From positions 1 through 64,000 of the IMG/VR virus record IMGVR_UViG_3300037419_000894: a DNA stretch of 64,000 nt; one strand, given 5' to 3'. The notes beneath the pieces were generated by a model. It saw only the letters and a program-made list of their open reading frames with translations. It made no database searches and was not told where the DNA came from. This stretch comes from a virus (taxonomy: Duplodnaviria; Caudoviricetes). The translations under genes and the position numbers were made by a program. Positions 1,419 through 17,928 of the stretch are shown piece after piece. How positions within the stretch are numbered: position 1 is the first letter of the stretch; every line of letters begins with the position of its first letter.

Positions 1419-1626
1419 ATTTCCACAAAGTAGCAATAATACACCAGTTTAGGCTAATCAAACACTTTGGGCCCGTAAAATGCGATACCTTACAAGTAAC
1501 GTTTCACGCACTAGGGCCCCGCATGCCCACGTGACAGGTGGCATGTGACTGCATCTTACCATAAAGGCCCTTCGGGCTATAGGGTGCAGTCACTGTACAA
1601 CATGCGTATATGATAGGAGAAATAAC

Positions 1627-1875
1627 ATGAACAAAGTCAACACCCCGGGCCATCAATTCCCAAATAACAAATACGTCAACACCTTCGCCTTGCTGCTTGG
1701 TATTACCTATGCAGCCCACGACGGTGTTAAGCGTAATGCAGTCGATGCGGAGTTGGAATTGCACGCACGCAAGCTAGTTGTGCGCGATTACATCCAAGAT
1801 AATCGCTTACCCGAAACTATCACCAAGGAACAGTCGGGCGCAATCATGCAAGCTTTTGTGTACTTCTATCTGTAA
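1627..1875 (+). CDS. Hypothetical early protein
   Basis: AGGAG RBS, 82 aa. Confidence 0.8.
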   Translation: MNKVNTPGHQFPNNKYVNTFALLLGITYAAHDGVKRNAVDAELELHARKLVVRDYIQDNRLPETITKEQSGAIMQAFVYFYL

Positions 1876-1924
1876 AGCAATTTACTAGCTATGCGTGCAT
1901 GGCTAGTGAGTGCGCTTTTGCACT
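1874..1924 (+). ncRNA. Junction pseudoknot motif copy E1
   Basis: AAAGC, 6-nt linker, hairpin 1885-1906, hairpin AGTGC-[GCTTTT]-GCACT whose loop complements AAAGC. Confidence 0.75.
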
Positions 1925-1941
1925 TGACAGGAGAAACAACT

Positions 1942-2238
1942 ATGAACACCTTTGACCCACGCACTGTAGTACCGTTCGTGAACGTAAAGCAATACATTCA
2001 CGCTGTACTGCAAGAAAACAACGTGTATGACCCTGAACTTGGGGATGACCAGTATTTCCTCGTTATGTACAATGCACGTGAAAAGCTGATTACTGACTGG
2101 CTGGACACGAACTACGGGGAGGACATCGAGGACTATGATGAGTTCTGCGTCCCTATGCACGAAATACATGATGTGTTTAACCACTACATGAAGTATGTGG
2201 AATACCTCATGTGGAACACAATTGCTAACAAGAAGTAG
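1942..2238 (+). CDS. Hypothetical acidic early protein
   Basis: GGAGA RBS before ATG 1942. Confidence 0.8.
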   Translation: MNTFDPRTVVPFVNVKQYIHAVLQENNVYDPELGDDQYFLVMYNAREKLITDWLDTNYGEDIEDYDEFCVPMHEIHDVFNHYMKYVEYLMWNTIANKK

Positions 2239-2295
2239 AGCCCTAGCTTATGACCACACTCTCACGGGTTGGTCATAGTCGAGCGCTCTTGCTCG
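2237..2295 (+). ncRNA. Junction pseudoknot motif copy E2
   Basis: AGAGC ... CGAGC-[GCTCTT]-GCTCG; first hairpin contains TGACCACAC. Confidence 0.75.
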
Positions 2296-2313
2296 GTACT
2301 ATAGGAGAATAAT

Positions 2314-2484
2314 ATGATTATGTTCCGTGGAATGGGTATCACGCATATTGTTGCAGGCGTGGTCCTGTGCGTAGCCCAAGCAATTGGCGTCAACATGGGG
2401 CCTGGTGACACGAACCTTATCATCGAGTCACAATTGTTTGGCGGCCTGTTTATGGCCGCGATTGGTTTCAAATTCAAGCTCTAA
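2314..2484 (+). CDS. Small membrane protein (56 aa, not in ORF track)
   Basis: AGGAGA RBS; MIMFRGMGITHIVAGVVLCVAQAIG...LFGGLFMAAIGFKFKL; two hydrophobic segments. Confidence 0.7.
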   Translation: MIMFRGMGITHIVAGVVLCVAQAIGVNMGPGDTNLIIESQLFGGLFMAAIGFKFKL

Positions 2485-2529
2485 GAGTTCTAGCGTTAGC
2501 CTTTGGGCTAACTCGAGCGCTCTTGCTCG
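2483..2529 (+). ncRNA. Junction pseudoknot motif copy E3
   Basis: AAGAGT ... GTTAGCC/GGCTAAC hairpin ... CGAGC-[GCTCTT]-GCTCG. Confidence 0.75.
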
Positions 2530-2556
2530 CAACCACCACATGAAAGGAGAAGCAGC

Positions 2557-2703
2557 ATGCACATTATCTGGTATCAACTCCTAAATGAAGAGACTGGTAA
2601 GCAGTACAAGATTGAATGCGAGCGGTTGGAAGAGGCTCAACTCGTCTGGGACTCGCTGGTCTACCTTCGCAATGCATACCGGGTCACCTGTAAGCGTCCG
2701 TAA
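2557..2703 (+). CDS. Small hypothetical protein (48 aa, not in ORF track)
   Basis: AAGGAG RBS; MHIIWYQLLNEETGKQY...TCKRP. Confidence 0.7.
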   Translation: MHIIWYQLLNEETGKQYKIECERLEEAQLVWDSLVYLRNAYRVTCKRP

Positions 2704-2753
2704 GAGCAATTTACAATCTCAGCTCGCTGGGATTGCGAGTGCGCTTTTGCACT
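2702..2753 (+). ncRNA. Junction pseudoknot motif copy E4
   Basis: AAGAGC ... CAATCTCAG/CTGGGATTG hairpin ... AGTGC-[GCTTTT]-GCACT. Confidence 0.75.
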
Positions 2754-2779
2754 GCATTCCACAACCAAGGAGAATCAAA

Positions 2780-2977
2780 ATGGCACAAGAGAAAGCATCC
2801 CCATTCGCATCGCTGTTCGAGGCAACTAACAAGGTCTCGAACGACGACCAAATCATCTTCAAGCTTCCCAAGGCGCATCGCGAGGCCTTCGCCGAGCTCT
2901 GCAAGAAGCACAACACCGACATGTCGACTGTGCTTCGCAAGTTCGTGGCAGCGCAAGTGACTTCGAGCGAGGAGTAA
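2780..2977 (+). CDS. Ribbon-helix-helix (CopG/Arc-like) DNA-binding protein
   Basis: IIFKLPKAHREAFAELCKKHNTDMSTVLRKFV fits the strand-helix-helix pattern; AAGGAG RBS. Confidence 0.65.
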   Translation: MAQEKASPFASLFEATNKVSNDDQIIFKLPKAHREAFAELCKKHNTDMSTVLRKFVAAQVTSSEE

Positions 2978-2981
2978 TGCC

Positions 2982-3239
2982 ATGACCACACAACAGACTT
3001 ACACTGTGGTCATCAACGAGTACCAGCGCAACATGCTGGCAGACATCCTGCAAGCTGTTTGTGCGCGCGACGATCTTAAGGATTTTCGCGACGTACTTAA
3101 GTCTCACGCTGGTGATGACAGCGTCTTTCTTGGCGAGGACAGCATGTACGAGGAAATGGAGACTTTCCTTGCGATGTTGAACGACATGCCACTCGCCGAA
3201 CGTTCTACACCGGGTTGCACTCACGGCTTCTGTTGCTAA
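2982..3239 (+). CDS. Hypothetical protein, probable paralog of 13741-14001
   Basis: GGAG RBS; shared I-x-E-x-QR-x2-L and ML-x2-[ML]P...G-x2-H patterns. Confidence 0.75.
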   Translation: MTTQQTYTVVINEYQRNMLADILQAVCARDDLKDFRDVLKSHAGDDSVFLGEDSMYEEMETFLAMLNDMPLAERSTPGCTHGFCC

Positions 3240-3242
3240 CGT

Positions 3243-3292
3243 AAAGTAATCTCCTGCCTTAGCGTGCTAGGGCAGTGGATGCACTTTGCATC
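3243..3292 (+). ncRNA. Junction pseudoknot motif copy E5
   Basis: AAAGT ... GATGC-[ACTTT]-GCATC; compensatory change relative to E1. Confidence 0.75.
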
Positions 3293-3311
3293 TCAACCTA
3301 AAGGAGCTATC

Positions 3312-3572
3312 ATGAAACTCGACGACAACCAAGTAGCAACCATTAGCCTTCAGGAACTGCACGACATCTTGGGCAACGGTGATCTTGGTATCACTGACCC
3401 AGCAACTGGCCAGCTCATGCTGCCTGCAGGATTCGAACTGGAGGTCATTGCTATGGACCCACAGACCGAAGGGAACATGAACAAGATCATGAACCGACTG
3501 AATGCTGTGCGCGACGAGCTCGCTAAACTTGACTCTGCGTTCCACGACGAGTTCGACGGCGCATACTGCTAG
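3312..3572 (+). CDS. Hypothetical acidic protein
   Basis: AAGGAG RBS before ATG 3312. Confidence 0.8.
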   Translation: MKLDDNQVATISLQELHDILGNGDLGITDPATGQLMLPAGFELEVIAMDPQTEGNMNKIMNRLNAVRDELAKLDSAFHDEFDGAYC

Positions 3573-3620
3573 AGTAATCTTACACCTCAGCGTGCTGGGG
3601 TGTTGGATGCACTTTGCATC
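3571..3620 (+). ncRNA. Junction pseudoknot motif copy E6
   Basis: AGAGT ... ACACCTCAG/CTGGGGTGT hairpin ... GATGC-[ACTTT]-GCATC. Confidence 0.75.
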
Positions 3621-3651
3621 GTCCCACCACAACAAATCCAAGAGGCTAAAA

Positions 3652-3855
3652 ATGTTAAAAATCAAAGTCTACTTCTACACCGCAGCATTCGCAGCAGTGC
3701 TCGCGGCAATTTATGGCATCAAGGCTGCGCTGAGCGGTTTGGAACGTGACCCTGTCAACGGCCCACTGTGTACAGCATTTACGATGGTTTCAATTGCTTT
3801 GTACATGATGTGCCTGGAAGCGAAGCAGCAGCTCAAACTCACTAAAGGAGAATAA
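3652..3855 (+). CDS. Small membrane protein
   Basis: GAGG RBS; two hydrophobic helices. Confidence 0.7.
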   Translation: MLKIKVYFYTAAFAAVLAAIYGIKAALSGLERDPVNGPLCTAFTMVSIALYMMCLEAKQQLKLTKGE

Positions 3856-3856
3856 T

Positions 3857-4132
3857 ATGCCTATCGCAGAACGCCAAAAATCCGCAGAAGCTAAGCCCTT
3901 GGACCAAATGACTATCCGGGAGCTTGCACTCACCATCCGCAATGCGTGGCCCAAGCCATACTTCGGCGCCAAGCCTTACATCGAGGCGATGCTGACGCTC
4001 GAGAAACTGAGCGACATGTATTTCTACGACAGCGGCCGCGACATCGTCACGTATTTCCTCGCGAACGCAGGCACATGGCGCGGCGGCATTGCTCAGATGG
4101 TCAAGGCTGAGCTCAAGCGCCGCCTGAAGTAG
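3857..4132 (+). CDS. Hypothetical phage protein
   Basis: AAGGAG RBS; 91 aa. Confidence 0.85.
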   Translation: MPIAERQKSAEAKPLDQMTIRELALTIRNAWPKPYFGAKPYIEAMLTLEKLSDMYFYDSGRDIVTYFLANAGTWRGGIAQMVKAELKRRLK

Positions 4133-4133
4133 T

Positions 4134-4192
4134 AAGAGTAATCTACAAGCTCGTGACCACACATCGCGGGCTTGTGGGTGCGCTCTTGCACC
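4134..4192 (+). ncRNA. Junction pseudoknot motif copy E7
   Basis: AAGAGT ... hairpin 4145-4175 with ACCACAC in its loop ... GGTGC-[GCTCTT]-GCACC. Confidence 0.75.
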
Positions 4193-4213
4193 TCCACCCA
4201 CAAAGGAGAAACT

Positions 4214-4432
4214 ATGACTACTCATATTATCAAATGCGACGAACACGGCGACGCCACCCTCTACGGTGAACTTCTTATTTGCCGTTACCTTGCAGGCGAC
4301 TGCGACACGATCGACTTCAAGAACCCAAATATGACGAACTTGAAGCATGCCCTGTACGATCTCCGCGAATGCAGCGATAAGATCAAGTACAGCGACAATT
4401 TCTCGATCGACGGCGTCGTCTTTACTGTTTAA
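4214..4432 (+). CDS. Hypothetical protein
   Basis: AAGGAG RBS before ATG 4214. Confidence 0.8.
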   Translation: MTTHIIKCDEHGDATLYGELLICRYLAGDCDTIDFKNPNMTNLKHALYDLRECSDKIKYSDNFSIDGVVFTV

Positions 4433-4449
4433 CAACAAGGAGAATTAAA

Positions 4450-4878
4450 ATGAGCCACACTATCGATTACAGCGCCCTTGAAGGTGACGCAAAACGCGAA
4501 GCAGCCATGAAAGATATCAAATTCTGGCTGGGCGAGGACACATTCAAGCGGATGCAAGCAAGTGTCGTGGCGGAGTACAAAGACAAGCCTTTCAGTCTTG
4601 AAACCTTCCGCTTCAGCGCATCGTTTGCAGGTGTCCAAGGTTACCCGGTCCAGGCCTGGTTCGAGACCGTTGTGGCGGAGGCTAAGATGGTTGCTATCAA
4701 GGGCGTGCGCGCCGACGGCATTGAAGTCTGGTACACCGGCAAAGCGGATGCAGAGTGGATCTCTGTATTTTCGGACGACGCCTTCATGGGCTACAACCTC
4801 GAGGGCGCCAAACGCAAGGCTGAGATCTTGAATCACTCGAGCACCATGACCGGCATCACTTTCGCGCCAGACGTGTAA
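4450..4878 (+). CDS. Hypothetical protein
   Basis: AAGGAG RBS; 142 aa. Confidence 0.85.
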   Translation: MSHTIDYSALEGDAKREAAMKDIKFWLGEDTFKRMQASVVAEYKDKPFSLETFRFSASFAGVQGYPVQAWFETVVAEAKMVAIKGVRADGIEVWYTGKADAEWISVFSDDAFMGYNLEGAKRKAEILNHSSTMTGITFAPDV

Positions 4879-4925
4879 AGCTGCAATGAAAGCCTCCACG
4901 CGGGGCTTTCGTGGCAATTTTGCCA
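4877..4925 (+). ncRNA. Junction motif copy E8 (imperfect pseudoknot pairing)
   Basis: AAAGCT ... GAAAGCC/GGCTTTC hairpin ... TGGC-[AATTTT]-GCCA; one mismatch. Confidence 0.5.
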
Positions 4926-4946
4926 GTCCCACCTAAGGAGAATCAA

Positions 4947-5144
4947 ATGGCTGTACATATCTGGATGGATGAAACATCTGGAGAAATCTCGATCAGTGCT
5001 TTTGAACCTGAAAGCACATTCTACGAAGCAAACCACATCATCTTGGTTGAAGATCGTGGCGGGAAAGTGAACAAACACCCATCGGTGCTCAACATCCTGC
5101 AGAATGTGTTGGAGCAAGCAGGCGTTCAAGTTATTCGTGATTAA
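4947..5144 (+). CDS. Hypothetical protein
   Basis: AAGGAG RBS before ATG 4947. Confidence 0.8.
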   Translation: MAVHIWMDETSGEISISAFEPESTFYEANHIILVEDRGGKVNKHPSVLNILQNVLEQAGVQVIRD

Positions 5145-5164
5145 ATTTTAACAAGGAGAATCAA

Positions 5165-5626
5165 ATGAAACAGAAACAAATCTTAGCCGTTATCGGTGGC
5201 GTCACCTTCACGAGCCTGCCTATTGGCGAGAAAGAGGCGCAGCATGTCCTAGACAGCTTCAGCCGCGCAGCCCCAAATTGCGATCCGCAAATCGTCGATG
5301 CCCAACCCGTGACCACACCCATCCGGAATGAGGATGTCGCGGCTGCTGTAAAAGCCGGACTGAAGAGTTATGATCGAGAGCTCTTAGCTCGAGGCAACAA
5401 TCTCGACGTTCTGCCAGCGAATCTGCTCAAGAACCTTGTGGATTACTACGTTGAAATGGGCGCGGCTCGCGACGAAACGGCTGCTCGTGCACTGCTGCGC
5501 ACCGCCTCCTTCGACGGTCTGCTCCGGGCATTCTGTGCATGGAACGGATACGGCGTGAATCCTGGTTCCTTGGCTAGTGCTGTGCGCCAGCTGTACAAAG
5601 CTGTTCATGGCGATAGCGATTCTTAA
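5165..5626 (+). CDS. Hypothetical protein
   Basis: AAGGAG RBS; 153 aa. Confidence 0.85.
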   Translation: MKQKQILAVIGGVTFTSLPIGEKEAQHVLDSFSRAAPNCDPQIVDAQPVTTPIRNEDVAAAVKAGLKSYDRELLARGNNLDVLPANLLKNLVDYYVEMGAARDETAARALLRTASFDGLLRAFCAWNGYGVNPGSLASAVRQLYKAVHGDSDS

Positions 5627-5706
5627 TAAAAAGCGTCCGCCCGGTTGTTAAATCGCAAGCCCACCGGGCATTTTTGCTGTACAATGGAGTTTGTGTTGTG
5701 CAAAAG

Positions 5707-5766
5707 CCGCGCTGATGAGACCTAAAAGGTCGAAACTTCCAGCCCGAAGGGGTTGGAGGTCCGCGG
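5707..5766 (+). ncRNA. Hammerhead ribozyme, type I (HHR-1)
   Basis: Stem I CCGCG/CGCGG; CTGATGA 5712-5718; stem II GACC-TAAAA-GGTC; GAAA 5732-5735; 10-bp stem III; GTC cleavage triplet 5759-5761. Confidence 0.92.
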
Positions 5767-5804
5767 ATGTCCGCGAATAACCACACCACAGGAGTATTAC
5801 CATC

Positions 5805-6509
5805 ATGGCAACTGACAAACAAGCAGCTCGCGCAGGTCGTAACGTCAAAGCAGCCGACGCAGTCGTGGCAAACGGCACGAAAGCTGCCAAAGCCCCGCGC
5901 AAAGTCCCGGCTGGCACACTGTCCGAGAAGCCGAAAATGGCTGAACCGACCAATCCTCCGGTCGAAATCACGGAAGAGCAGCGCAAGGCTGACCGTCGCG
6001 CTGACGACATCACCAAGAACGACGCAATGGCCAGGTTCGTGGCACAGCAGACTGGCGAAACCAAGCCGAAAGTCGACATAGCTGCGTTCGAGGCTGAAAT
6101 GGCTGCGCTGAAAGCTAAGTACGGCGTCACCGCTGAAGTGAAGGTCAAGGCCTCGAAAGGTGATAAAATCGTCCAGAACGGCGTGACCAGGCCTGCAGCC
6201 AGCACCCTATGCGGTAAAATCTGGGCCGCAGCCGACCGCATCAGCCAGCGCATTCACAGCGTGGCGCCGATCGCACTGCTGCGCGAGGATCCGGAGCTGA
6301 AGGGTGTGAATGACCACACTATCAAGACGCAGTACGCGAAATGGCGTGCGTTCAACAACGTCTCGGGCCGGCTCCCGCGCATCCAGGCTGTGCACCAGCC
6401 GGCGGAAGGCATCTACAACGAAGCCCTCCCGCATATCGTGCAACCGCAGGCAACTGAGCCTGCCAAAAGCGAGGAGCAGCCGGCTAGCGACGCACCAGCA
6501 GCTGAATAA
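5805..6509 (+). CDS. Ala/Lys-rich protein with putative DNA-binding C-terminal domain (paralog family member 2)
   Basis: CAGGAG RBS; GVTRP...CGKIWAAAD...GVNDHTIKTQYAKWR. Confidence 0.85.
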   Translation: MATDKQAARAGRNVKAADAVVANGTKAAKAPRKVPAGTLSEKPKMAEPTNPPVEITEEQRKADRRADDITKNDAMARFVAQQTGETKPKVDIAAFEAEMAALKAKYGVTAEVKVKASKGDKIVQNGVTRPAASTLCGKIWAAADRISQRIHSVAPIALLREDPELKGVNDHTIKTQYAKWRAFNNVSGRLPRIQAVHQPAEGIYNEALPHIVQPQATEPAKSEEQPASDAPAAE

Positions 6510-6531
6510 GCCTTCGGACTTGGTCCACACA

Positions 6532-6553
6532 GGGAGCTTCGGCTCCCTTTTTT
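6532..6553 (+). terminator. Rho-independent terminator
   Basis: GGGAGC-TTCG-GCTCCC followed by T6. Confidence 0.9.
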
Positions 6554-6583
6554 ATTGACTGTAACCACACTCAGGAGTATTAC

Positions 6584-6844
6584 ATGTTCGAATTACAAAG
6601 CATTGAAATCGTCAATAGTGCTCTGGCTGAAATTGAACCTGCAATGTTGAAAGCGTGCCTTGCCAAGGTTGCCGACCAAATCGTGAACAGCGGCCTGCGC
6701 AATCGTGCAAGGATTGTGATCTCCAAGCGCACTTCAACAGGTTGGCTGGAATACCCGATCACAATCTTCAATGAGGACCATGTGGCAATATACATTGTAG
6801 CGATACAGCGCACGGTCGATAGCGAAGTTGAGTTTCATTCGTGA
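6584..6844 (+). CDS. Hypothetical protein
   Basis: CAGGAG RBS; 86 aa. Confidence 0.8.
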   Translation: MFELQSIEIVNSALAEIEPAMLKACLAKVADQIVNSGLRNRARIVISKRTSTGWLEYPITIFNEDHVAIYIVAIQRTVDSEVEFHS

Positions 6845-7290
6845 CCACACTCCTGCGGTGCGAATAGGTGCTGTTTGACCTGCTCGCGCTGAGGTTCTGG
6901 TGTTGTGAATTGCATCAATTCATACCCTGTGACAGAGGGTATGTGTGGGAGCAATTAAATACGGGTGGCTACCCTAGTCACCATGCGTTTCACCCTACTC
7001 CGACTAGGGGGGTGCTCATTTGCCCGATTTGTAGGCATCCGACTACCCTCCCCTTACTTTGCCTAAATACCGAGCAAAAATGGTGTTCCAATAGACAGAA
7101 TATGGTATAAATAAGTAATTAAGATTTTTGGTGCTCTGTATAGGGAAAAGTAGTAGTAAATAGTAGTAATGCAATAAAAACGTTAGTCTTTGAAATAAAT
7201 ACAGGAGTAGGTAGGGTTTACTTTTACCCCTCGCACCCCCAACCCGCGCAAAACTCCTAATGCAATGGTCCTACCCCAACATTTTAAATG

Positions 7291-7299
7291 TGCTACAAT
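7291..7299 (+). promoter_or_regulatory. Extended -10 promoter element
   Basis: TGcTACAAT about 30 nt upstream of ORF 7332. Confidence 0.5.
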
Positions 7300-7331
7300 A
7301 GGGGCTCCCATACTTTATTTAAAGGTGCCAA

Positions 7332-8150
7332 ATGCTACAGCTCACTACCCACGTCTCCCAAGAGACTGCCTTTCGTTTCGATTATTTTCCATACACCTTC
7401 GGACACTATTGCCCGATTCGTGTTTGGGTGGACTCCAAGACCGGTAAGGGCCAGCGCCTAGCGTACCGCACGTTCAACCCAATTGACCGTGAGTGGACCA
7501 AACCCAAGTTGTCCGCATACTTCGATCTGGTATTCCTGTTCGAAAAACATGGGTTCGTCACCGAGCAGCTAATCAGCTTCCAAAGCATGCCTCTCGACGA
7601 CCTTCTGCACATTGTCTCGCACTACTACGTAACGTCAGAGCAAAAGCAGCGCATCCAAGCCTACCTAGCAACCGTGGCCAATGTAGGCCGCACAAACTGG
7701 GCAAGTCCTACAGAGCATGCGCAACATCCTGGAGGTTACGAGGTACAAGAGTTATCCATCACAAACAGCGACCCGCTGCTCACAACCAGCTCGCACCTCA
7801 TTGTTCCTGAACCACCTGCGATTGAGCAAAAGCAACTCGGGCGCCCGCCTAGCAAAAACTTGTGGAACGCGCCAAAGGTAGTGGAAGCCACACCAGACAC
7901 AAGTGTGGTCAACGCTCCCAAGCCTTGGTTGCGCGGTCCTCAGCAGCCTGCAATGTCTCAAGCAGCTACAACGTCCCTGCAAAAGCTCATTGATCAAATA
8001 CACGATCATACAGCACTGTTACTTAAGCGCGGAGACGAGCGTGACGAGTATTACATCAATCGAGGTCGTCAAAACCCGGACAACTTCAAGAGCGAAACAC
8101 AAGTGCGCAATTACGCCGCAGTTCTAGGCATCACACTCATCGAAGATTAA
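7332..8150 (+). CDS. Hypothetical protein with Pro-rich linker
   Basis: 272-aa ORF, AAGGT RBS. Confidence 0.8.
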   Translation: MLQLTTHVSQETAFRFDYFPYTFGHYCPIRVWVDSKTGKGQRLAYRTFNPIDREWTKPKLSAYFDLVFLFEKHGFVTEQLISFQSMPLDDLLHIVSHYYVTSEQKQRIQAYLATVANVGRTNWASPTEHAQHPGGYEVQELSITNSDPLLTTSSHLIVPEPPAIEQKQLGRPPSKNLWNAPKVVEATPDTSVVNAPKPWLRGPQQPAMSQAATTSLQKLIDQIHDHTALLLKRGDERDEYYINRGRQNPDNFKSETQVRNYAAVLGITLIED

Positions 8151-8174
8151 CCACACAACCCGAAAGGAACCATC

Positions 8175-8369
8175 ATGTACAACATCTTAGTCACAACCTT
8201 CGTACTCCGCGAGCAACAAATCGTCACCGTGGCTTCTGCCGTAATAAGCGCACCAACAACCGCCGAGGCCGACGCAATCCTTAAGAACGCCAAGAAAACT
8301 TGGTTTGCCAATGACAACCACATCATCCGCATGTTCGAACCGCTGTACAATCTCGGCAGCCCGATCTAG
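8175..8369 (+). CDS. Hypothetical protein
   Basis: AAAGGA RBS. Confidence 0.75.
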   Translation: MYNILVTTFVLREQQIVTVASAVISAPTTAEADAILKNAKKTWFANDNHIIRMFEPLYNLGSPI

Positions 8370-8377
8370 GACACCAA

Positions 8378-8623
8378 ATGACCACAATCGCAAAACGCCT
8401 CTCTAAGCACCTCGGCGGCAAGTGGGCCTACGACAATCTGTCTACTTGGTGGTGCGACGACAATAAGCGCAGCGTGTCCCGTTGCAGCGCGGGCGTCGAT
8501 GAGTTCGATAACGATCTCGGCCCTGCCCAATATTGGTTGTACGGCGACGGCAACCCCCGTCGTGCGGAGCAGTACATGTTCAAGCGACCATCACTCTTAA
8601 CACTCTTAAAGGACTCCCAATGA
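8378..8623 (+). CDS. Hypothetical protein
   Basis: AGGA RBS; 81 aa. Confidence 0.75.
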   Translation: MTTIAKRLSKHLGGKWAYDNLSTWWCDDNKRSVSRCSAGVDEFDNDLGPAQYWLYGDGNPRRAEQYMFKRPSLLTLLKDSQ

Positions 8624-8766
8624 ACCCGACCACAGTCTTCATCCACAGCAGTGGTATCCTTGCTGCCTACCTAGCTATCAGTTACACTACTCGCGGCGAG
8701 TACCTCCTAGCTTCGATTGAGGCAACCATTATGCTGTTCTTCGCCTCCCGCGAACCTAAGCCCTAA
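8620..8766 (+). CDS. Small membrane protein
   Basis: ATGA overlap with upstream stop; hydrophobic. Confidence 0.6.
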   Translation: MNPTTVFIHSSGILAAYLAISYTTRGEYLLASIEATIMLFFASREPKP

Positions 8767-8833
8767 AGCCCTAGCCAATGCCGACTAACCGCACGCCGGC
8801 ATTCCCGAGTGCTTTATCACCAAAGGAGCTACA

Positions 8834-9052: not shown

Positions 9053-9070
9053 GCACAGATGGACCGCAAC

Positions 9071-9129
9071 AAGGTTCCACTGTTAGACGCTTACCACACA
9101 TGGCGGCGTCTAACGGGGCAATCTTGCCC
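9071..9129 (+). ncRNA. Junction pseudoknot motif copy E10
   Basis: AAGGTT ... GTTAGACGC/GCGTCTAAC hairpin ... GGGC-[AATCTT]-GCCC; 6-bp covaried pairing. Confidence 0.7.
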
Positions 9130-9144
9130 GACACAGGAGGTTAT

Positions 9145-10320
9145 ATGAAACGTTTCATTAGCACTCTCGCTGCGGCGATGGTTGCTGCTGGCGTCATGGC
9201 AGCTCCAAAGTCTGTAACACCCACTAAGACCGGAGCATTAACAGTCGCGTCTGGTCAAACGTGGTTTAGCGCAAACGGCATCACTTACGTTCCGGTGGGT
9301 CCGAAGTCGTATCCCGAAGGTGATTGGTATGTCCTCTGTGCTTACGATACTGTGGGCACCCTCAATTGCAAACGGCTCGTTCCAGTCTGGAGCATGAAAG
9401 GCATTTTGGTTCAGTCGCAACTTGGGGCGGATGGTACTCCAATCACAACCTACGCGCAAACTGAGATGTACAACGGCCAGGATGTCAGCGCGATGTCTCC
9501 AGTGGAAAAGGTGAATCTAGCGAAGTCTGTTCTAGACAGCCAGAGCCTAGCGATCGCCGTATTCGAAGCAAGGTTGGCTGACGCCATTACACAGTTCGAC
9601 AATGGTTGCGCCGCGGACGTCGGTTGCGAGACTTCGGCAAGTGCGATGCGCAGTGGTCGGGCGCCAAGCAGCTCGAGTGCCAAGGCAAGCAGCAGCGGTG
9701 CGAAGGCAGATTCGGAGCCTGAGCCTAGGAGCGCAAAACCTGCCGGTGGTAAACGCATGCAAACGGTGGAGGTTCCGGGGCAGATTCCCGACCCGGAATA
9801 CCCGCCCAACATGGGTGATCCTGTGCCTGATCCTGTGGCGGACCCAACTGCGCCGTCTGGTGATGGTGGCAACGACGCTGGCGGGCTGCCTGATCAGCCA
9901 GATGGTAGCGGAAGCTGGCGGAAATACAAGATGCCGAGCGAAACTTGCGTCGCGACTCCGCCGCTCCCCGGTATGCCTGTCGTCGGTGGTGGTTGCGTCG
10001 TCAGGGTTCCTGCACCGCACCCTGTTATTCCGCCGGACCCGGAGACCCAGCCGTTGCCTCCCCCGCCTACAGATTGGTGCAGGATCTTCCCGGGAGCCTG
10101 CGCCGGAGCTGATGGACTGCCTCCCAACGTCCCGAACCCGATGCGCGATATGTGCAATTCGCGGTTCTTGGTGAAGGCTATGCGTTGCTACCAGAAGCGC
10201 CTGGATGATCCAGCGCACGTGACCGACAGCGAAACGCGGGTCTGTGTTGCTGGAGCTCAGGCTCAGCTGGCGATCTGCGCCGCAGGAGCTCCGCCGGCGC
10301 TTGCTGCACCTAAGCAGTAA
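9145..10320 (+). CDS. Secreted Pro-rich, Cys-rich protein of unknown function
   Basis: AGGAGG RBS; signal peptide MKRFISTLAAAMVAAGVMA; 12 Cys; Pro-rich second half. Confidence 0.75.
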   Translation: MKRFISTLAAAMVAAGVMAAPKSVTPTKTGALTVASGQTWFSANGITYVPVGPKSYPEGDWYVLCAYDTVGTLNCKRLVPVWSMKGILVQSQLGADGTPITTYAQTEMYNGQDVSAMSPVEKVNLAKSVLDSQSLAIAVFEARLADAITQFDNGCAADVGCETSASAMRSGRAPSSSSAKASSSGAKADSEPEPRSAKPAGGKRMQTVEVPGQIPDPEYPPNMGDPVPDPVADPTAPSGDGGNDAGGLPDQPDGSGSWRKYKMPSETCVATPPLPGMPVVGGGCVVRVPAPHPVIPPDPETQPLPPPPTDWCRIFPGACAGADGLPPNVPNPMRDMCNSRFLVKAMRCYQKRLDDPAHVTDSETRVCVAGAQAQLAICAAGAPPALAAPKQ

Positions 10321-10379
10321 TCTGTAACCACGCCCGGTCGGAGATCATCCCGGCCGGGATTTTATCCACAGGAGGTACA

Positions 10380-10571
10380 ATGGACCCAAAGAAGCAACAC
10401 CGGTTACTCCGCAGTCAGGGAACCGACTGGTGGTACAGGGAACTGGCTGAACAAGCAGCTAACGCACGCATGGAGCGCGAAATTGCTGAATCGTTCAACC
10501 GTCCCCATCTGTACTTGATCGCGCACAACCCGCACATCCCATCCAAACCTAAATACAGGAGGCCAATGTGA
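10380..10571 (+). CDS. Hypothetical protein
   Basis: AGGAGG RBS. Confidence 0.75.
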   Translation: MDPKKQHRLLRSQGTDWWYRELAEQAANARMEREIAESFNRPHLYLIAHNPHIPSKPKYRRPM

Positions 10572-10945
10572 ACAAAATAACCATCTCTTGCGTACCCAAA
10601 TTCATCATGAACTTGTCGCTGGCAGAATGCCAGTTAATCCGAGCGCTAGCAAGTTGGCACTATGACGTAAAATGCAGAAATGCTGGCCACGTAGGCGGGT
10701 TCCTTTACGGTTGGATGAATCAGCTAACGCCTGCTGACGAGAACGACACCGAAGAAAGGTTCGTTAGCGCTTCGTTCGGTGAGCTCGACTTAGTCCTTAA
10801 GATCTTAGAGGTTATGCACTCTTGGCGAGATGATGCTGAGCGCAAAGCCCTTCGCAAAATAGACCTTCAAATAAGGACTGCGCTCAAAGAATCTAACCGC
10901 ATCATGCCAACTCTCAGCTTTGAAGTCGATCTGTCCCACATCTAA
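10568..10945 (+). CDS. Hypothetical protein
   Basis: Overlaps upstream stop; GGAGG RBS. Confidence 0.75.
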   Translation: MNKITISCVPKFIMNLSLAECQLIRALASWHYDVKCRNAGHVGGFLYGWMNQLTPADENDTEERFVSASFGELDLVLKILEVMHSWRDDAERKALRKIDLQIRTALKESNRIMPTLSFEVDLSHI

Positions 10946-10997
10946 AGCGAAAGCTAATGCTAGTTCCATGAGCTAGCATTGTCGAGCGCTTTGCTCG
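10944..10997 (+). ncRNA. Junction pseudoknot motif copy E11
   Basis: AAAGC ... AATGCTAG/CTAGCATT hairpin ... CGAGC-[GCTTT]-GCTCG. Confidence 0.75.
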
Positions 10998-11012
10998 TAA
11001 CAGGAGAAACAA

Positions 11013-11273
11013 ATGGAATTATCCAGAGCAGGTATGGTGTGGTCACAACAGGAGCTTGAACAACTCCGCACCAATTTCGGTTCAGGTATGGACCTTGAAG
11101 AGCTAATGCGGACGCAGGGTCGGTCTGCATACGCTATCATTGCGAAGCTTCAGGAGATGGGCTTGATTGTGCTGGTCGGCCGTAGCAGCTACCACAAGGT
11201 TGTTCCGGATGCGTGGATTACCTCCGAAGGTATCCACTTTATCAACAAGCAATCAAAGGGTGGCGCAAAATGA
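11013..11273 (+). CDS. Small Myb/SANT-like helix-turn-helix protein
   Basis: W-S-x2-E-x3-L...GRS-x2-AI-x2-KL pattern; CAGGAG RBS. Confidence 0.55.
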   Translation: MELSRAGMVWSQQELEQLRTNFGSGMDLEELMRTQGRSAYAIIAKLQEMGLIVLVGRSSYHKVVPDAWITSEGIHFINKQSKGGAK

Positions 11274-11590
11274 TCAACGCAAACCAAATACGACTCCAGC
11301 ATGTCACCGAGTTCCAACTTTGGGACGGCGAAATGACCGTGCATGCCTTTCAACATATCGGCGCCCACGGCTTCCCAAGCGCTGCAATCGTCATCACACG
11401 TATGGACGACCCAATCGAAACACGAGTGTGGTCAGGATACGGGCGTTACAAGCCTAGCGAAAAGCCAACTGAAGCTCACATGAGTCAGTGGATTGCAGAT
11501 CAACTTAATCGCTTAGCAACGGGCGCCTATGGCAGCACGTCAGCAATTGTTGAAATTCGTTCGCCTGATGTAAGGATCATCTATGGGTAA
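11270..11590 (+). CDS. Hypothetical protein
   Basis: ATGA overlap with upstream stop. Confidence 0.7.
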   Translation: MINANQIRLQHVTEFQLWDGEMTVHAFQHIGAHGFPSAAIVITRMDDPIETRVWSGYGRYKPSEKPTEAHMSQWIADQLNRLATGAYGSTSAIVEIRSPDVRIIYG

Positions 11591-11978
11591 GCACTACCGC
11601 GACCCGAAAGACAAGCCCACATTGTTGGAGCAACACTACAATGATGTGGACAAGTACCCGTCGCCTTACCACACTCTCAAAGACGTGTGCGAAGCACTGC
11701 TCAACGCTCCGGCCGACAGCGAGGGTGCACAGCGCGTGCTGTACGCTGTGCTAGTGCCTGAAAATCCGGTCCGCGACAAGCAAGCGCATTGCAGGTATTA
11801 TCTCACTTATGCAGGTGCTAAAGCTTGGATCGAAGGACATAACAGCACGCGCGTTACCAAGCAGAACGAAGGCAACAAGCGCAAGGCGAAATTGCTAGTG
11901 TACAGCCCTGATGAGATGCGTACCTACCTCATTCAACTTGCACCACAAAACAACGAGGGGAGCAATGAGTCTAGTTGA
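11583..11978 (+). CDS. Hypothetical protein
   Basis: AAGGA RBS; 131 aa. Confidence 0.75.
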   Translation: MGKHYRDPKDKPTLLEQHYNDVDKYPSPYHTLKDVCEALLNAPADSEGAQRVLYAVLVPENPVRDKQAHCRYYLTYAGAKAWIEGHNSTRVTKQNEGNKRKAKLLVYSPDEMRTYLIQLAPQNNEGSNESS

Positions 11979-12123
11979 CTTCTTATTCGAGAAACGCACC
12001 AAGCTCGAGCTAGCAAAAGAGCTTGCCAAGACGGCACACGAGAACGCAGCTCTGCGCAACCGCGTGTACGAACTTGAGCATGAGCTTTTCTGGCTCAAGG
12101 CAATCACACCACCACAGGAGTAA
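11965..12123 (+). CDS. Small coiled-coil protein
   Basis: GGGGAG RBS; heptad-like ELAKELAKTAHENAALRNRVYELE. Confidence 0.7.
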   Translation: MSLVDFLFEKRTKLELAKELAKTAHENAALRNRVYELEHELFWLKAITPPQE

Positions 12124-12233
12124 TTATGACTAATCCGACCAATCAAAAACAGCTCAAGTAGCGCCACAGCGTAAGCCCTTCAGTGGGCTTACTCGGTTGC
12201 ACTGCTGTCAATAACCACAACAGGGAGCTTACA

Positions 12234-12428
12234 ATGGAACAAGAAGAAATCTGGATTAACGGTGTGCAGTATGAAGCAAAGCGAGCAACGCTCAGCCACG
12301 GTTGCTCAGGTTGCGTAGCCTATCAACTGTTACCTAGCGGCTCGAGGTACATCAATCAGCAGTTGTGTGGTCAACTTCCGAAGTGTGTAGCACCTAATGT
12401 AGTCTTTACTCTCAAACAGGAGAAATAA
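12234..12428 (+). CDS. Small Cys-containing protein
   Basis: GGGAG RBS; CxxC plus two more Cys. Confidence 0.7.
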   Translation: MEQEEIWINGVQYEAKRATLSHGCSGCVAYQLLPSGSRYINQQLCGQLPKCVAPNVVFTLKQEK

Positions 12429-12908
12429 ATGCGTAAAGTTCAAATTCTGGCTCGTGAGCTCGATGCGGGCGACATCCTCGTCACGGACGATGCTCGCGAC
12501 GTTGTTACCCAAGTCATTGATACTGGTGAACCTCTGATCACCGTATGCGCAGCACGGTTAGGCCTGGGGAACTGCTCGGACTATCCTGTCAACTGGCATC
12601 GAGATTCGAAGGTCTTTGTCGAGCGTCCGCTGCCGAACCCAATGGATGGCTTGTATGCTATCGGTACGCCGGTGCTTGTGGACGTCGATGTGGACATGTT
12701 TCGCACTGGTGTAGTGTGCGGCGTAAGGGTGGAAACAAAGGTCGTCGCATCGCTTGTGAGCAACGTTACGCCTGAAAACGCAAGTTCAAATGTGCAATAT
12801 CAAATTATTTGGACCAAAGGGTCTGTAGGAACAAACCACCCTTGGTTCGAGCAACATCTCGTTAAGGCTACAGCATCTGAGTTTCATCAAATCAAAAAGT
12901 TCCTATAA
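12429..12908 (+). CDS. Hypothetical protein
   Basis: CAGGAG RBS; 159 aa. Confidence 0.8.
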   Translation: MRKVQILARELDAGDILVTDDARDVVTQVIDTGEPLITVCAARLGLGNCSDYPVNWHRDSKVFVERPLPNPMDGLYAIGTPVLVDVDVDMFRTGVVCGVRVETKVVASLVSNVTPENASSNVQYQIIWTKGSVGTNHPWFEQHLVKATASEFHQIKKFL

Positions 12909-12975
12909 CAGTGCTACAACGCAAGCTCCTGCCCATGCGGTGGGCTTGCTTGGTAACACTCACAAAGGAGGAAGT

Positions 12976-13263
12976 ATGAAACATACTACTGAAACAGAAG
13001 ATTTTGTCCTCGCAACCGAGGACGGCAAACAGTTCGTGCAGGTCAAGAGGGGTGCTTGGAATGATACACCGTACATCGAACTCACGACGGAGTTTGCGCG
13101 AGCTACTCCAATGAAGTCTGAGTCGGTCTTTCGGACGCACAGCATCACAATCAAAGATTATTGCGGAGCAACGCGCCGCATCCCAATTAAGATCACTCGC
13201 GTAGTCGAAGTGATGACTGAGGAGCTTAATTTTAACCTGCCTCCGGAGGACGGACATGGCTAA
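12976..13263 (+). CDS. Hypothetical protein
   Basis: AAGGAGG RBS. Confidence 0.8.
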   Translation: MKHTTETEDFVLATEDGKQFVQVKRGAWNDTPYIELTTEFARATPMKSESVFRTHSITIKDYCGATRRIPIKITRVVEVMTEELNFNLPPEDGHG

Positions 13264-13627
13264 CCCTGCGCACACTCGACGTGCTACAGCTCAGGAGGCT
13301 GTAGAATTTAATCAGATGCGGTGGCAGTCTAAAAACTGGCAGCGTCTGCATGAGTTGAGTCTGGAATTTGTTCGCACAGGTTCATTCAAGTGTAAAGAAG
13401 ACCAACAAGCTCACTCTGAAGTGACTAAGGCTTGGCATGCTGAACTTATGACTTCGAAGTTCCGCTTCGGGGCACATGGCTTGCAGGTGGTCAAAGAACG
13501 CAATGAGCGAGTTGTGCGCCCCAAGCGCACCGCAGGCAGGGCTTTTTACAGCCATTGTGAACTGTGCACAAGGCCTCTAGTTGGCGCAGAACGAAAGAGT
13601 CCTGCTTGTGCAGATTGCTCACCTTAA
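13256..13627 (+). CDS. Hypothetical protein with C-terminal zinc ribbon
   Basis: CELC...CADC; GGAGG RBS. Confidence 0.75.
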   Translation: MANPAHTRRATAQEAVEFNQMRWQSKNWQRLHELSLEFVRTGSFKCKEDQQAHSEVTKAWHAELMTSKFRFGAHGLQVVKERNERVVRPKRTAGRAFYSHCELCTRPLVGAERKSPACADCSP

Positions 13628-13681
13628 TTAACGGACCCAAATGCAGCATTGGTATCCGTGCGTGCGGGCGTATAACGCGCG

Positions 13682-13690
13682 TGTTATAAT
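13682..13690 (+). promoter_or_regulatory. Consensus extended -10 promoter element
   Basis: TGtTATAAT 50 nt upstream of ATG 13741. Confidence 0.6.
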
Positions 13691-13740
13691 GTTGTTTGCT
13701 GTACCTTTCACCTTGTAGTTCTACAATCAAAGGAACTAAG

Positions 13741-14001
13741 ATGACTAAAGTATCTGAAAAACGGCCCAACGGCCCGTTCGACCTGCGCATCAGCGAGCGG
13801 CAGCGTAAGCTGCTGGTGCGTGCGCTCACCGAAGGTTTGTCGGACGACTTCGTCCTGACACTCATGTCCGAGAACGCGCAGAGTGTGGTCATGGGCAACA
13901 ATCTCCAACAACTCCAAGAGTTGACCAGCATGCTCAGCACCCTTCCCGACAACAATGTAGCGGGCATGCTGCACGCTCTTTTGCATGCGAGCGAACGATG
14001 A
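13741..14001 (+). CDS. Hypothetical protein, probable paralog of 2982-3239
   Basis: AAGGA RBS; ISERQRKLL...MLSTLP...GMLH. Confidence 0.75.
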   Translation: MTKVSEKRPNGPFDLRISERQRKLLVRALTEGLSDDFVLTLMSENAQSVVMGNNLQQLQELTSMLSTLPDNNVAGMLHALLHASER

Positions 14002-14288
14002 CCACACAACAGCGCACAATCAAGACGGTTTACCGTTTTCAAGGCGAAGAGACCAAGGTGACCACAGCCTGCAATCCCAACCGCGCTGTCGCTAAATGCG
14101 TCGAGCACTTGCAAGTGAATGACTACGGCGCAACGGTTGCCGAGGTCTACGATCGCGAAAGCGGGGTTTTGCACGCCATTGTCAAGCGTAGCATTAACGG
14201 TAGCATTAACATTGCCTACCGTTACAACCCTGAAGACTTCAAACCCATGCGTCTGTCTCTCGGCGCACTGCTGGAGGAAAAGAAATGA
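13998..14288 (+). CDS. Hypothetical protein
   Basis: ATGA overlap; 96 aa. Confidence 0.75.
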   Translation: MTTQQRTIKTVYRFQGEETKVTTACNPNRAVAKCVEHLQVNDYGATVAEVYDRESGVLHAIVKRSINGSINIAYRYNPEDFKPMRLSLGALLEEKK

Positions 14289-14548
14289 CCACACCATCAT
14301 TCAGAACGCTCAAGGCGCTACGCATGTGGCACTGGCAGCAGATGAAGACGCACCGTGCAGAGCAAGACCGCTTGGAACGGCTTGTGGATCAATCAACTCG
14401 CGCGCACCACAAGAAAGAGTATCGCGAGGAGGCGCGTCAGCACCGCATGCTAGCAGACCTCCACCTATCTGCTGTGCAAGTGCTGAACGACAGTGTGCCT
14501 GGAACTGCTGAACAAGACTGCGCAGAGGAGGACGCTCAAAAGACTTAA
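14285..14548 (+). CDS. Hypothetical helical protein
   Basis: GGAGG RBS; ATGA overlap. Confidence 0.75.
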   Translation: MTTPSFRTLKALRMWHWQQMKTHRAEQDRLERLVDQSTRAHHKKEYREEARQHRMLADLHLSAVQVLNDSVPGTAEQDCAEEDAQKT

Positions 14549-14596
14549 AGTTCCAGCGTATGCCCTTCACCGGGCATACTCGGGCGCTTTGACCCG
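14547..14596 (+). ncRNA. Junction pseudoknot motif copy E12
   Basis: AAAGT ... GTATGCCC/GGGCATAC hairpin ... CGGGC-[GCTTT]-GACCCG (one bulge). Confidence 0.7.
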
Positions 14597-14622
14597 TAAC
14601 CTCCACAAACAAAGGAGCTTGT

Positions 14623-16077
14623 ATGTCAAGAACTTGGTCACCCTATCAACAAACCATCTTTGCTTTCGTTGCTGAAGCGAATGCTGGTAACGCAATCGTG
14701 AACGCAGTTGCTGGTTCTGGTAAATCTACAACTATTGTCGAAGCCTGTAACCACATCCCGTCCGGGCAAACGCACCTCATGCTCGCGTTCAACAAGTCGA
14801 TCGCAGAGGAGCTGAAGGAACGCGGCGTCAACGCTCGCACCTTCCACTCGCTGACGTACACGCCTGTGACGCGTGCTAAAGGCACGTCGTCGGTGGATTC
14901 GAACAAGCTGCGCACCATCTGCAAGATGAAGATGCCCAGCAAGGACGAATTCTTGTACGCCAACTTCTGCTGCCGGCTGGTTGGCATCGTGCGCCAAATG
15001 GGTATCGGGTTTCTATGCCCGGATGAGCGCTGGGTGTACGAAGACGTCATCGATCACCACATGCTCGAACTGGACAGCGAGAATGCTGAACTGGACGTGG
15101 CAATCGACTACGCCCAAAAGCTGCTCACATGGTCCAACGCTAGCCCGGTGGTCGATTTTGACGATCTGCTGTACCTCGCAGTGAAAGACAATATTGCGCT
15201 GCCGAAGTACGACTTCATCTTCGTTGACGAAGCCCAGGACACCAACGCTATCCAGCGTGAAATCCTGCGCAAGATCATGAAACCAACCTCGCGCATCATT
15301 GCAGTGGGCGACCCGGCACAAGCAATCTACGGCTTCCGCGGCGCCGACAGCAACTCGCTCAAGCGCATTGAAGACCAGTTCGGTGCAACCAACCTGCCGC
15401 TGACCGTTTCGTATCGCTGCGGCACCGAGATCGTCAAGTACGCTCAGCAGTGGGTGCAGCACATTGAACCCGCGCCGGGTGCTCCGGCAGGTGTGGTCAA
15501 CGATCTCAACAAGGACTGGAACACTGGCATGTTCCAGTCGGACGACCTTATCGTCTGCCGTACAACGAAGCCACTGGTCGCGCTGGCGTACAGGCTGCTG
15601 CGCGATCGCATCCCAGCGAAAATTATGGGGCGCGACATTGGTGCGGGTCTGATCTCACTCATCAAGCGTCAGAAAGCTACCAGCATTGATCAGCTGATCG
15701 AACGCGTTAGCAACTGGGCAGCGCGTGAAGCGGATGCAGCATTGCTGCAAGGTAAGGAGTCCAAAGCGCAGGCGCAACAGGACAAGGCTGACGCTATTAT
15801 CGTGCTGTGCGAAACCCTGCCGGAGCACGAGCGCACGGTCGAACATCTGGTGGAGGTCATCAACAACCTGTTCACCGACCGCGCGAGCAACTGCCTCACC
15901 CTTGCCACTATCCACAAGGCTAAGGGCATGGAAGCTGACCGCGTGTGGTGGCTCAACCGCCGGCAGTGCCCTGCAAAATGGGCCAAGAAAGACTGGATGC
16001 AAGAGCAGGAACGAAACCTTTGCTATGTCGCCACGACGCGAGCAAAATCTGAACTCAACCTTATTGAGGAGCGTTAA
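14623..16077 (+). CDS. UvrD/Rep-like SF1 helicase
   Basis: AVAGSGKST, FVDEAQD, VGDPAQAIYGFRG, TIHKAKGME, YVATTRAK. Confidence 0.95.
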   Translation: MSRTWSPYQQTIFAFVAEANAGNAIVNAVAGSGKSTTIVEACNHIPSGQTHLMLAFNKSIAEELKERGVNARTFHSLTYTPVTRAKGTSSVDSNKLRTICKMKMPSKDEFLYANFCCRLVGIVRQMGIGFLCPDERWVYEDVIDHHMLELDSENAELDVAIDYAQKLLTWSNASPVVDFDDLLYLAVKDNIALPKYDFIFVDEAQDTNAIQREILRKIMKPTSRIIAVGDPAQAIYGFRGADSNSLKRIEDQFGATNLPLTVSYRCGTEIVKYAQQWVQHIEPAPGAPAGVVNDLNKDWNTGMFQSDDLIVCRTTKPLVALAYRLLRDRIPAKIMGRDIGAGLISLIKRQKATSIDQLIERVSNWAAREADAALLQGKESKAQAQQDKADAIIVLCETLPEHERTVEHLVEVINNLFTDRASNCLTLATIHKAKGMEADRVWWLNRRQCPAKWAKKDWMQEQERNLCYVATTRAKSELNLIEER

Positions 16078-16078
16078 A

Positions 16079-16282
16079 ATGCAATCATTAAAGAGCCCGA
16101 CTCACGAACAACTGATTCAAGCTCACACCGACATTGTAAGCGTTGACGAGAATGTCGAAATTGTCGTGGACAAAATCGGTCACGTTGTGTGGGTGAACAT
16201 CGCGGGCGCGTGCGTCCTACGTGTTCACGGCGCAAGGAATGTGGTCATCAAGGACGAACGCAACAAAAAACCAGCCAACTGA
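16079..16282 (+). CDS. Small hypothetical protein
   Basis: GAGGAG RBS; its TGA stop lies inside the HHR-2 core. Confidence 0.75.
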   Translation: MQSLKSPTHEQLIQAHTDIVSVDENVEIVVDKIGHVVWVNIAGACVLRVHGARNVVIKDERNKKPAN

Positions 16283-16335
16283 AGAGCTCTCGGTCTAATA
16301 TGAGCGAAACGCCCAGAACATCGGGCGTCTTGGTT
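16273..16335 (+). ncRNA. Hammerhead ribozyme, type I (HHR-2)
   Basis: Stem I AGCCAA/TTGGTT; CTGAAGA 16279-16285; stem II GCTC/GAGC; GAAA 16306-16309; stem III CGCCC/GGGCG; GTC 16327-16329. Confidence 0.9.
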
Positions 16336-17927: not shown

Positions 17928-17928
17928 A

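Follow-up and report, generated by a model that had tools for sequence, protein, structure and literature searches.

Two predicted RNA processing modules, a bistable element and type I hammerheads, at the early gene junctions of a soil siphophage

The DNA analyzed here, termed the window, comprises bases 1-64,000 of the complete 74,241-bp IMG/VR virus record IMGVR_UViG_3300037419_000894. Its open reading frames (ORFs) include those for a tape-measure protein, a tail tube protein, an NrS-1-like primase-polymerase and a UvrD-type helicase, and the primase shares 53% amino acid (aa) identity with the primases of NP1/PaMx25-type Pseudomonas and Xanthomonas siphophages (Queuovirinae). Judged from its genes, the phage is a Queuovirinae-like soil siphophage, and the window DNA was found solely in soil and rhizosphere metagenome DNA runs. 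Many gene junctions in its early arm contain one of two RNA modules: an element of about 50 nucleotides (nt) that appears to be bistable, folding either as a plain hairpin (fold X) or in a two-hairpin form (fold Y, made up of hairpin 1 and hairpin 2), or else a type I hammerhead. Both kinds of module are considered below as candidate sites at which early transcripts would be divided between genes.

Structured spacers between the early genes

Plus-strand genes were called from 1.6 to 20 kb and every junction between them was printed, with the spacer counts covering 1.6-17 kb. Spacers of at least 40 nt number 21, and the 50-nt element is present in 11 of these and a complete type I hammerhead in two, whereas neither occurs at any of the 22 junctions of 24 nt or less. 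The other long spacers contain terminator-like hairpins, promoter-like boxes (recognized by eye) or X-like hairpins unaccompanied by hairpin 2. An earlier, sequence-only reading of this region had noted that many junctions with spacer DNA carry a structured motif or a hammerhead while tight junctions carry neither, and the census bears this out (13 of 21 spacers versus none of 22 tight junctions). It had also proposed that the early transcript is segmented into single-gene units; the elements do separate genes, but several tightly coupled gene pairs lie between them, and strictly single-gene units are not implied.

The element begins at the stop codon of the upstream gene, and a CA-rich leader, a strong Shine-Dalgarno sequence (SD) and an ATG come next. 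The curated set consists of 35 copies in eight lineages, 24 of them outside the window, and all are on the sense strand and precede a CA-rich leader, SD and ATG; a relaxed descriptor, which is nonspecific genome-wide, was used solely to spot genuine copies. No -35 or -10 boxes are found inside the element, and no U-tract lies inside or after it. An Rfam cmscan of positions 1860-4960, with E values up to 10, returned no matches, and no covariance-model match to the other small ribozyme classes (twister, twister-sister, pistol, hatchet, HDV-like and hairpin) was obtained in a permissive search of positions 1-20,000 or in 1860-4960. Searches of cultured phages by megablast and blastn revealed no close relative at the DNA level and no copy of the element, and NP1, which is the closest cultured phage by its primase (53% aa identity), has neither the element nor a hammerhead. 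Comparison of the copies supports the bistable element well as a new RNA motif that is not in Rfam.

The CA-rich leader, of the type 'AACCACAC', lies directly 5' of the SD at many junctions whether or not the element is present (for example at 5775-5795, 6560-6575, 6845-6852, 8151-8160 and 10325-10332), and it could be a translation enhancer or a standby site. Extended -10-like boxes (TGnTACAAT or TGnTATAAT) were noticed by eye in long spacers near 5672, 7305, 13680 and 16870, and suggest that several host-type promoters lie inside the "early" arm, although a generic scan for sigma-70 promoters and terminators gave matches no better than chance. The 255-nt spacer at 11979-12233 contains an 11-codon mini-ORF with its own ribosome binding site (RBS) (12126-12161), followed by an X-like hairpin without hairpin 2.

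Two mutually exclusive folds of the 50-nt element

Across the 35 copies, the strand next to the stop codon can pair with the loop of hairpin 2, forming a helix of 6-7 bp called P1a. The first position of P1a is C-G in 16 copies, U-A in nine and U-G in eight, and the fourth is A-U in 22, G-C in nine and G-U in four, with an A-C mismatch never encountered; none of 5000 permutations matched the observed level of pairing. The true stop codon falls within P1a in 27 of the 35 copies. The helix takes up the whole 4-6-nt loop of hairpin 2 and often the first 1-2 nt of the 3' strand of that hairpin, and an adjacent AAUYU sequence pairs with the 5' strand of hairpin 2 (P1b). Because P1a and P1b use the loop and the strands of hairpin 2, folds X and Y are mutually exclusive. 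Fold X starts with 7 bp that include the stop codon; a 1x2 internal loop separates these from an upper stem of about 14 bp, which is capped by a tetraloop (often CGUG). The total is about 21 bp, and the RBS is free in both folds. The sequence-only reading had called the motif a pseudoknot. The pairing that it noticed is real and covaries across the 35 copies, but it belongs to an alternative helix rather than to a simultaneous pseudoknot; an H-type pseudoknot formed at the same time as hairpin 2 was rejected on steric grounds, since P1a uses the full loop and P1b uses the 5' strand of hairpin 2.

Each fold has its own comparative support. Fold X is the minimum free energy structure in 34 of the 35 copies, with a mean calculated advantage over Y of 3.6 kcal/mol. 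An Infernal alignment of the 21 family-A rows shows 91.9% of the fold X cells paired, compared to 74.8% after shuffling and at most 49% in slid registers, and both sides change in 14 of the 21 pairs. Hairpin 2 is 99% paired, compared to 48% when permuted, and is built from 14 different stem types; these counts were made with a structure-anchored script because MAFFT misaligns hairpin 1 and Infernal mis-registers the 5-nt loops. The two sets of evidence meet in alignment column 60, which covaries with column 16 in fold X (U-A in 12 rows, C-G in nine, unpaired in none) and also, as judged by eye from the alignment, with the position that it pairs with in hairpin 2. A single strand thus covaries with two partners, which marks the element, at the level of its sequences, as bistable.

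Across the helices of the element, G-U pairs number 112 and A-C mismatches eight, an excess which argues that the RNA of the sense strand is where the structure acts. Conservation is unusually strong in the P1a sequence A(A/G)AG(C/U) and in its partner. Almost none of the unpaired nucleotides is conserved, and family B varies at the bulge nucleotide.

Type I hammerheads and the positions they share with the element

The two hammerheads of the window, HH1 and HH2, both possess the conserved core, defined as C3-U4-G5-A6-N7-G8-A9, G12-A13-A14, an A15.1-U16.1 pair and H17 at the cleavage site. The core reads CUGAUGA...GAAA...GUC in HH1 and CUGAAGA...GAAA...GUC in HH2, where the UGA of the CUGAAGA box is also the stop codon of ORF 16079-16282. 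Both also have the three helices of a hammerhead, with stems I, II and III of 5, 5 and 11 bp in HH1 and of 6, 4 and 6 bp in HH2, and with stem I open. The hammerhead descriptor detects these two sites in the genome, and the number expected per random genome is 0.005. No Rfam model matched at its gathering threshold, and a permissive Rfam search of 20-64 kb was likewise without a match.

A search for related loci with the protein encoded at 5805-6509 alone yielded no relative, and relatives were reached through homologs of this protein, the contigs that encode these homologs and a motif pattern scan. They contributed another 12 type I hammerheads built in the same way, each in the sense strand and at a gene junction (one sequence, L012, was left out as probably a chance pattern match). 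In an alignment of the resulting 14 hammerheads, which come from seven lineages, the core CUGAnGAG...CGAAAC...GUC is invariant, and 10 of the 13 consensus pairs show compensatory double-sided changes with none broken. Twelve of the 14 begin between -7 and +11 nt from the stop codon of the upstream ORF. The predicted 3' products start with a 5'-terminal hairpin of at least 4 bp in 10 of the 14 cases, compared to 14% of arbitrary positions (binomial P of about 2e-6, some of the cases being orthologous); this hairpin consists of the 3' strand of stem I and a spare complement located downstream, and its loop is often AUGU. The comparison thus identifies the hammerheads as real, conserved sense-strand RNA structures, for which self-cleavage is predicted.

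The two kinds of module meet directly at one gene family. Homologs of the gene at 13998-14288 (g13998) have the element upstream in L007 and a hammerhead upstream in L013 and L014, and the same gene is tightly coupled to its neighbor in the window phage. The element and the hammerhead are, on this comparison, interchangeable upstream of the family.

Several hammerheads of the relatives lie near the homolog of gene 5805-6509 (L006:9816-9876 and 10602-10660; L010:4075-4124 and 5119-5169). Some relatives have a hammerhead right after this homolog, with an additional one upstream in L006, and the same junction 3' of gene 5805-6509 in the window phage has an intrinsic terminator (6531-6554) instead. 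The modules of the window and the features associated with them are collected in Table 1.

Table 1. Positions of the X/Y elements, hammerheads and associated features in the window
Feature	Position	Strand	Remarks
X/Y copy 1, family A	1873..1926	+	68 bits; stop UAA inside P1a; followed by RBS and ATG at 1942
X/Y copy 2, family B	2236..2297	+	Hairpin-2 loop GCUCUU; ortholog L003:6628 with compensatory change
X/Y copy 3, family B	2482..2529	+	Ortholog L003:6771
X/Y copy 4, family A	2700..2753	+	65 bits; L003 homology block begins exactly at this copy
X/Y copy 5, family A	3241..3293	+	True stop at 3237, second UAA inside P1a; 5' half equals L003:8059
Small gene between copies 5 and 6	3312..3572	+	Missing in L003, one chimeric element in its place
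X/Y copy 6, family A	3570..3620	+	3' tail and downstream gene match L003:8059
X/Y copy 7, family A, long hairpin 1	4133..4193	+	
X/Y copy 8, divergent	4875..4925	+	Hairpin-2 loop AAUUUU
Type I hammerhead HH1	5707..5766	+	Descriptor and sub-threshold Rfam match; predicted cleavage after 5761; 3' of terminator-like hairpin (5630-5675) and TACAAT box, 5' of RBS of gene 5805-6509
Refolding hairpin CGCGG-AUGU-CCGCG	5762..5775	+	5' end of predicted HH1 3' product
X/Y copy 9, weak hairpin 2	8764..8820	+	
X/Y copy 10, family B	10943..10997	+	
Degenerate or variant copy	12909..12975	+	Long X-like hairpin without hairpin 2
X/Y copy 11	14545..14596	+	5' of UvrD-type helicase gene; ortholog at same junction, L007:14422
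Type I hammerhead HH2	16273..16335	+	Descriptor; predicted cleavage after 16329; ortholog L007:16310

Elsewhere in the genome, positions 33313-36396 contain a 7-deazaguanine/queuosine-type cluster (radical SAM QueE-like protein, QueC, PTPS/QueD and GTP cyclohydrolase I or FolE), which fits a Queuovirinae-like phage with modified DNA. Positions 30-138 are repeated at genome positions 74082-74191, past the window, and this repeat at both contig ends suggests terminal redundancy or a circular assembly overlap, in line with a complete genome. Near the left end, 5' of the first genes, ACCCACGTTCCACGC occurs in three direct copies at 274-393.

Processing of early transcripts, its alternatives and related systems

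The reading that we prefer, and hold to be about as likely as not, is that both module types serve as intercistronic processing modules, the hammerheads cutting themselves and the element being cut by a double-stranded RNA nuclease, probably that of the host. The hammerheads would self-cut after GUC, and the downstream mRNA would usually refold the 3' strand of stem I into a 5'-terminal hairpin. The 50-nt element would fold first as X, which has the layout of a T7 RNase III site, and an endonuclease specific for double strands, with RNase III of the host the likeliest candidate, would cut the 3' side of X just under the upper stem. Hairpin 1 would then remain on the upstream mRNA as a protective 3' hairpin, and the freed downstream strand would refold to hairpin 2 at the new 5' end, just as the hammerhead products are predicted to refold with their spare complement. 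The outer helix of both module types overlaps the upstream stop codon and would be expected to form only once the terminating ribosome has gone. As a by-product, the repeated elements would serve as crossover points for the gain and loss of small early genes.

This reading builds on the structures and their covariation, on the placement of the modules, on the interchange among relatives and on the product-hairpin pattern of the hammerheads; we infer from these that cleavage happens at all, which enzyme would cut X and where the cut would fall. With its helix of about 21 bp interrupted by a 1x2 loop, X has the length that RNase III requires (about two turns, internal loop allowed). The sequence-only reading had gone further in suggesting a T7-RNase-III-like scheme that the RNA itself would encode and that could work without host nucleases. 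The hammerheads fit that description at two of the 13 junctions, but the other 11 resemble RNase III-type substrates; the element has almost no unpaired nucleotides that are conserved, no ribozyme family matches it, and host independence is therefore backed at the two hammerhead junctions only.

Several points weigh against the processing scheme. The covariation counts come from a few duplication-related subfamilies, so that the cell counts overstate the number of independent events. In the permissive Rfam search, HH1 scored 35.3 bits against the 56.3-bit threshold of RAGATH-1-hammerhead and HH2 was unreported; the models include extra 5' or peripheral elements which HH1 and HH2 lack. Stem I is only 5-6 bp long, no tertiary contact was identified in the hammerheads, and the refolding hairpin may compete with the ribozyme fold and thereby leave cleavage partial. 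If the element were cut within the conserved 1x2 loop, the cut would strip the 5' strand from hairpin 2 and the product-hairpin rationale would fail. Finally, bistability can be explained without any cleavage, by a ribosome-toggled switch or a stabilizer.

This last possibility, in which only the hammerheads cut and the element stays intact as a ribosome-actuated bistable switch or as an mRNA stabilizer or insulator, is unlikely but carries appreciable weight. A ribosome terminating in P1a would melt the lower helix and convert X to Y, and the outcome might be protection from exonuclease or RNase E, in the manner of REP-like sequences, or a standardized RBS context. The position of the stop codon within P1a in most copies suits such a device, as do the covarying, mutually exclusive folds that differ by only about 3.6 kcal/mol, the lack of a U-tract after the element and an RBS that neither fold sequesters. 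However, equal accessibility of the RBS in both folds leaves the output of a switch unclear, and a helix of about 21 bp would be hard to hide from RNase III. Moreover, a cleaving ribozyme replaces the element at an orthologous junction, and the product-hairpin logic shared by the two modules points to cleavage. The same replacement could be turned around to argue that the element itself represents an undescribed class of self-cleaving ribozymes, or is the target of a phage-encoded nuclease, and that no part of the scheme depends on the nucleases of the host. The element shares the hammerhead slot, lies outside Rfam and has an unusually conserved P1a strand and partner, and Weinberg et al. in 2015 reportedly found twister-sister, pistol and hatchet through just such association with known ribozymes. 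Yet X is a plain hairpin with no multi-helix junction and no feasible pseudoknot, the 4-6-nt loop being fully used, and it has very few conserved unpaired nucleotides and a bulge nucleotide that varies in family B. As for a phage nuclease, no RNase (RNase III included), RtcB or PNK was recognized among the 29 larger window ORFs scanned, with many ORFs unannotated. We regard this proposal as highly improbable, and think just as little of an autonomous device in which a ribosome-toggled minimal ribozyme, or a phage-nuclease substrate, would release a cistron only after at least one round of translation.

Two further explanations shift attention away from cleavage altogether. The element might be a DNA-level recombination module or selfish repeat, an analogue of the PeSL (early promoter plus terminator stem-loop) that shuffles small early genes, with its RNA structure incidental. 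Comparison of gene content across relatives does agree with the suggestion of the sequence-only reading that the elements could act as recombination boundaries. Homology blocks between the window and L003 begin exactly at the element starts 2700, 3570 and 4134, and the elements at 2236 and 2482 are kept in L003 while the flanking genes differ. One clear chimera, L003:8059, has a 5' half identical to the copy at 3241 and a 3' tail and downstream gene that match the copy at 3570; the crossover lies within the shared hairpin-2 sequence, and gene 3312-3572 is absent. In the more distant relatives, the elements are the sole nucleotide-level homology in the early arm. Nevertheless, the strong bias toward G-U pairs over A-C mismatches, the strict sense orientation, the fixed registration with stop codon and RBS and the compensatory changes point to selection at the RNA level, and the element has no internal promoter, unlike PeSLs. 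A purely DNA-level role is thus improbable, and the crossovers are more plausibly an effect of the repeats, since any conserved repeat attracts them. The remaining explanation takes the element as the operator of an RNA-binding regulator (such as a RegA-like translational repressor) or, on account of GCGCUCUU in hairpin 2, as a boxA/NusB-type antitermination site. The conserved hairpin-2 loop, GCUCUU or GCUUU, resembles lambda boxA, CGCUCUUA, and multiple early genes would be co-regulated by such a site. We rate this as quite improbable: the loop covaries with the stop-proximal strand (position 4 from A-U to G-C, position 1 from G-C to A-U), which argues that pairing constrains its sequence, and antitermination sites occur once per operon, compared to eight junctions within 4 kb here. 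A boxA-like site was rejected on the same ground, the covariation of the hairpin-2 loop with its pairing partner.

What hammerheads do in bacteria and phages has so far been deduced mostly by indirect means, and their exchange, in the same slot, with a non-ribozyme element provides comparative evidence that they act as intercistronic mRNA processors; the element and the hammerhead also constitute a matched pair of modules for testing. The combination of one strand that has two covarying partners with a terminal product hairpin suggests a general rule for stabilizing processed phage mRNAs. The element, in addition, marks the crossover points at which small early genes are exchanged.

As far as the hammerheads are concerned, the scheme has already been proposed and partly tested. 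Perreault et al. 2011 (PMC3088659) described clustered hammerheads that flank single, small non-conserved genes in prophages and phages, and proposed that long phage transcripts are cut to mRNAs of single-gene or operon length; three arrangements were shown to cleave in vitro, and one was shown to do so in vivo. The present hammerheads resemble these systems in that several occur per operon between small genes. They differ in being all of type I, with a stem I that is short and open and extends over the stop codon of the upstream gene, in the spare complement that would give most of them a terminal hairpin on the 3' product, and in sharing their slots with a far commoner non-ribozyme element. 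What is new is accordingly the bistable element, the exchange of this element for hammerheads, the product-hairpin design common to both and the overlap with stop codons.

The closest parallel to the element itself is provided by the early sites R0.3, R0.5, R1, R1.1 and R1.3 of phage T7, which are likewise intercistronic, repeated and partly conserved in sequence, and form hairpins of about two turns with the same plan. Folded from the T7 record, these sites show a small internal loop between a lower stem and an upper stem of 9-13 bp. Dunn and Studier are said to have placed the RNase III cut, in 1983, on the 3' side directly below the upper stem. The window element has no sequence similarity to the T7 sites, has an extra, mutually exclusive 3' hairpin (hairpin 2) and includes the stop codon in its lower helix, and its cut is a prediction. 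A substrate of RNase III must contain about two turns of helix, and an internal loop confines the enzyme to cutting one strand, with a protective hairpin left at the 3' end; the proximal-box, distal-box and antideterminant rules were defined for the E. coli enzyme (PMC1540722).

The PeSLs of T4-type phages are repeated intergenic stem-loops at which crossovers add, delete and swap small early genes (PMC2839356, PMC4122927). Recombination at the 50-nt element similarly shuffles the flanking small genes, as the chimera and the block boundaries indicate, but unlike the PeSL the element has neither promoter boxes nor a U-tract, and the constraint on it is on RNA pairing. In RiboJ-type insulators, a ribozyme located 5' of the RBS leaves a 5' hairpin that is thought to stabilize the mRNA and expose the RBS (PMC6206723). 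The hammerhead products described here are also predicted to have a hairpin at the new 5' end; RiboJ, however, is an engineered plant satellite ribozyme with a separate hairpin, whereas the hairpin in the phage products would re-use the 3' strand of stem I. In this respect the design of the phage modules may be regarded as a natural counterpart of engineered insulators such as RiboJ.

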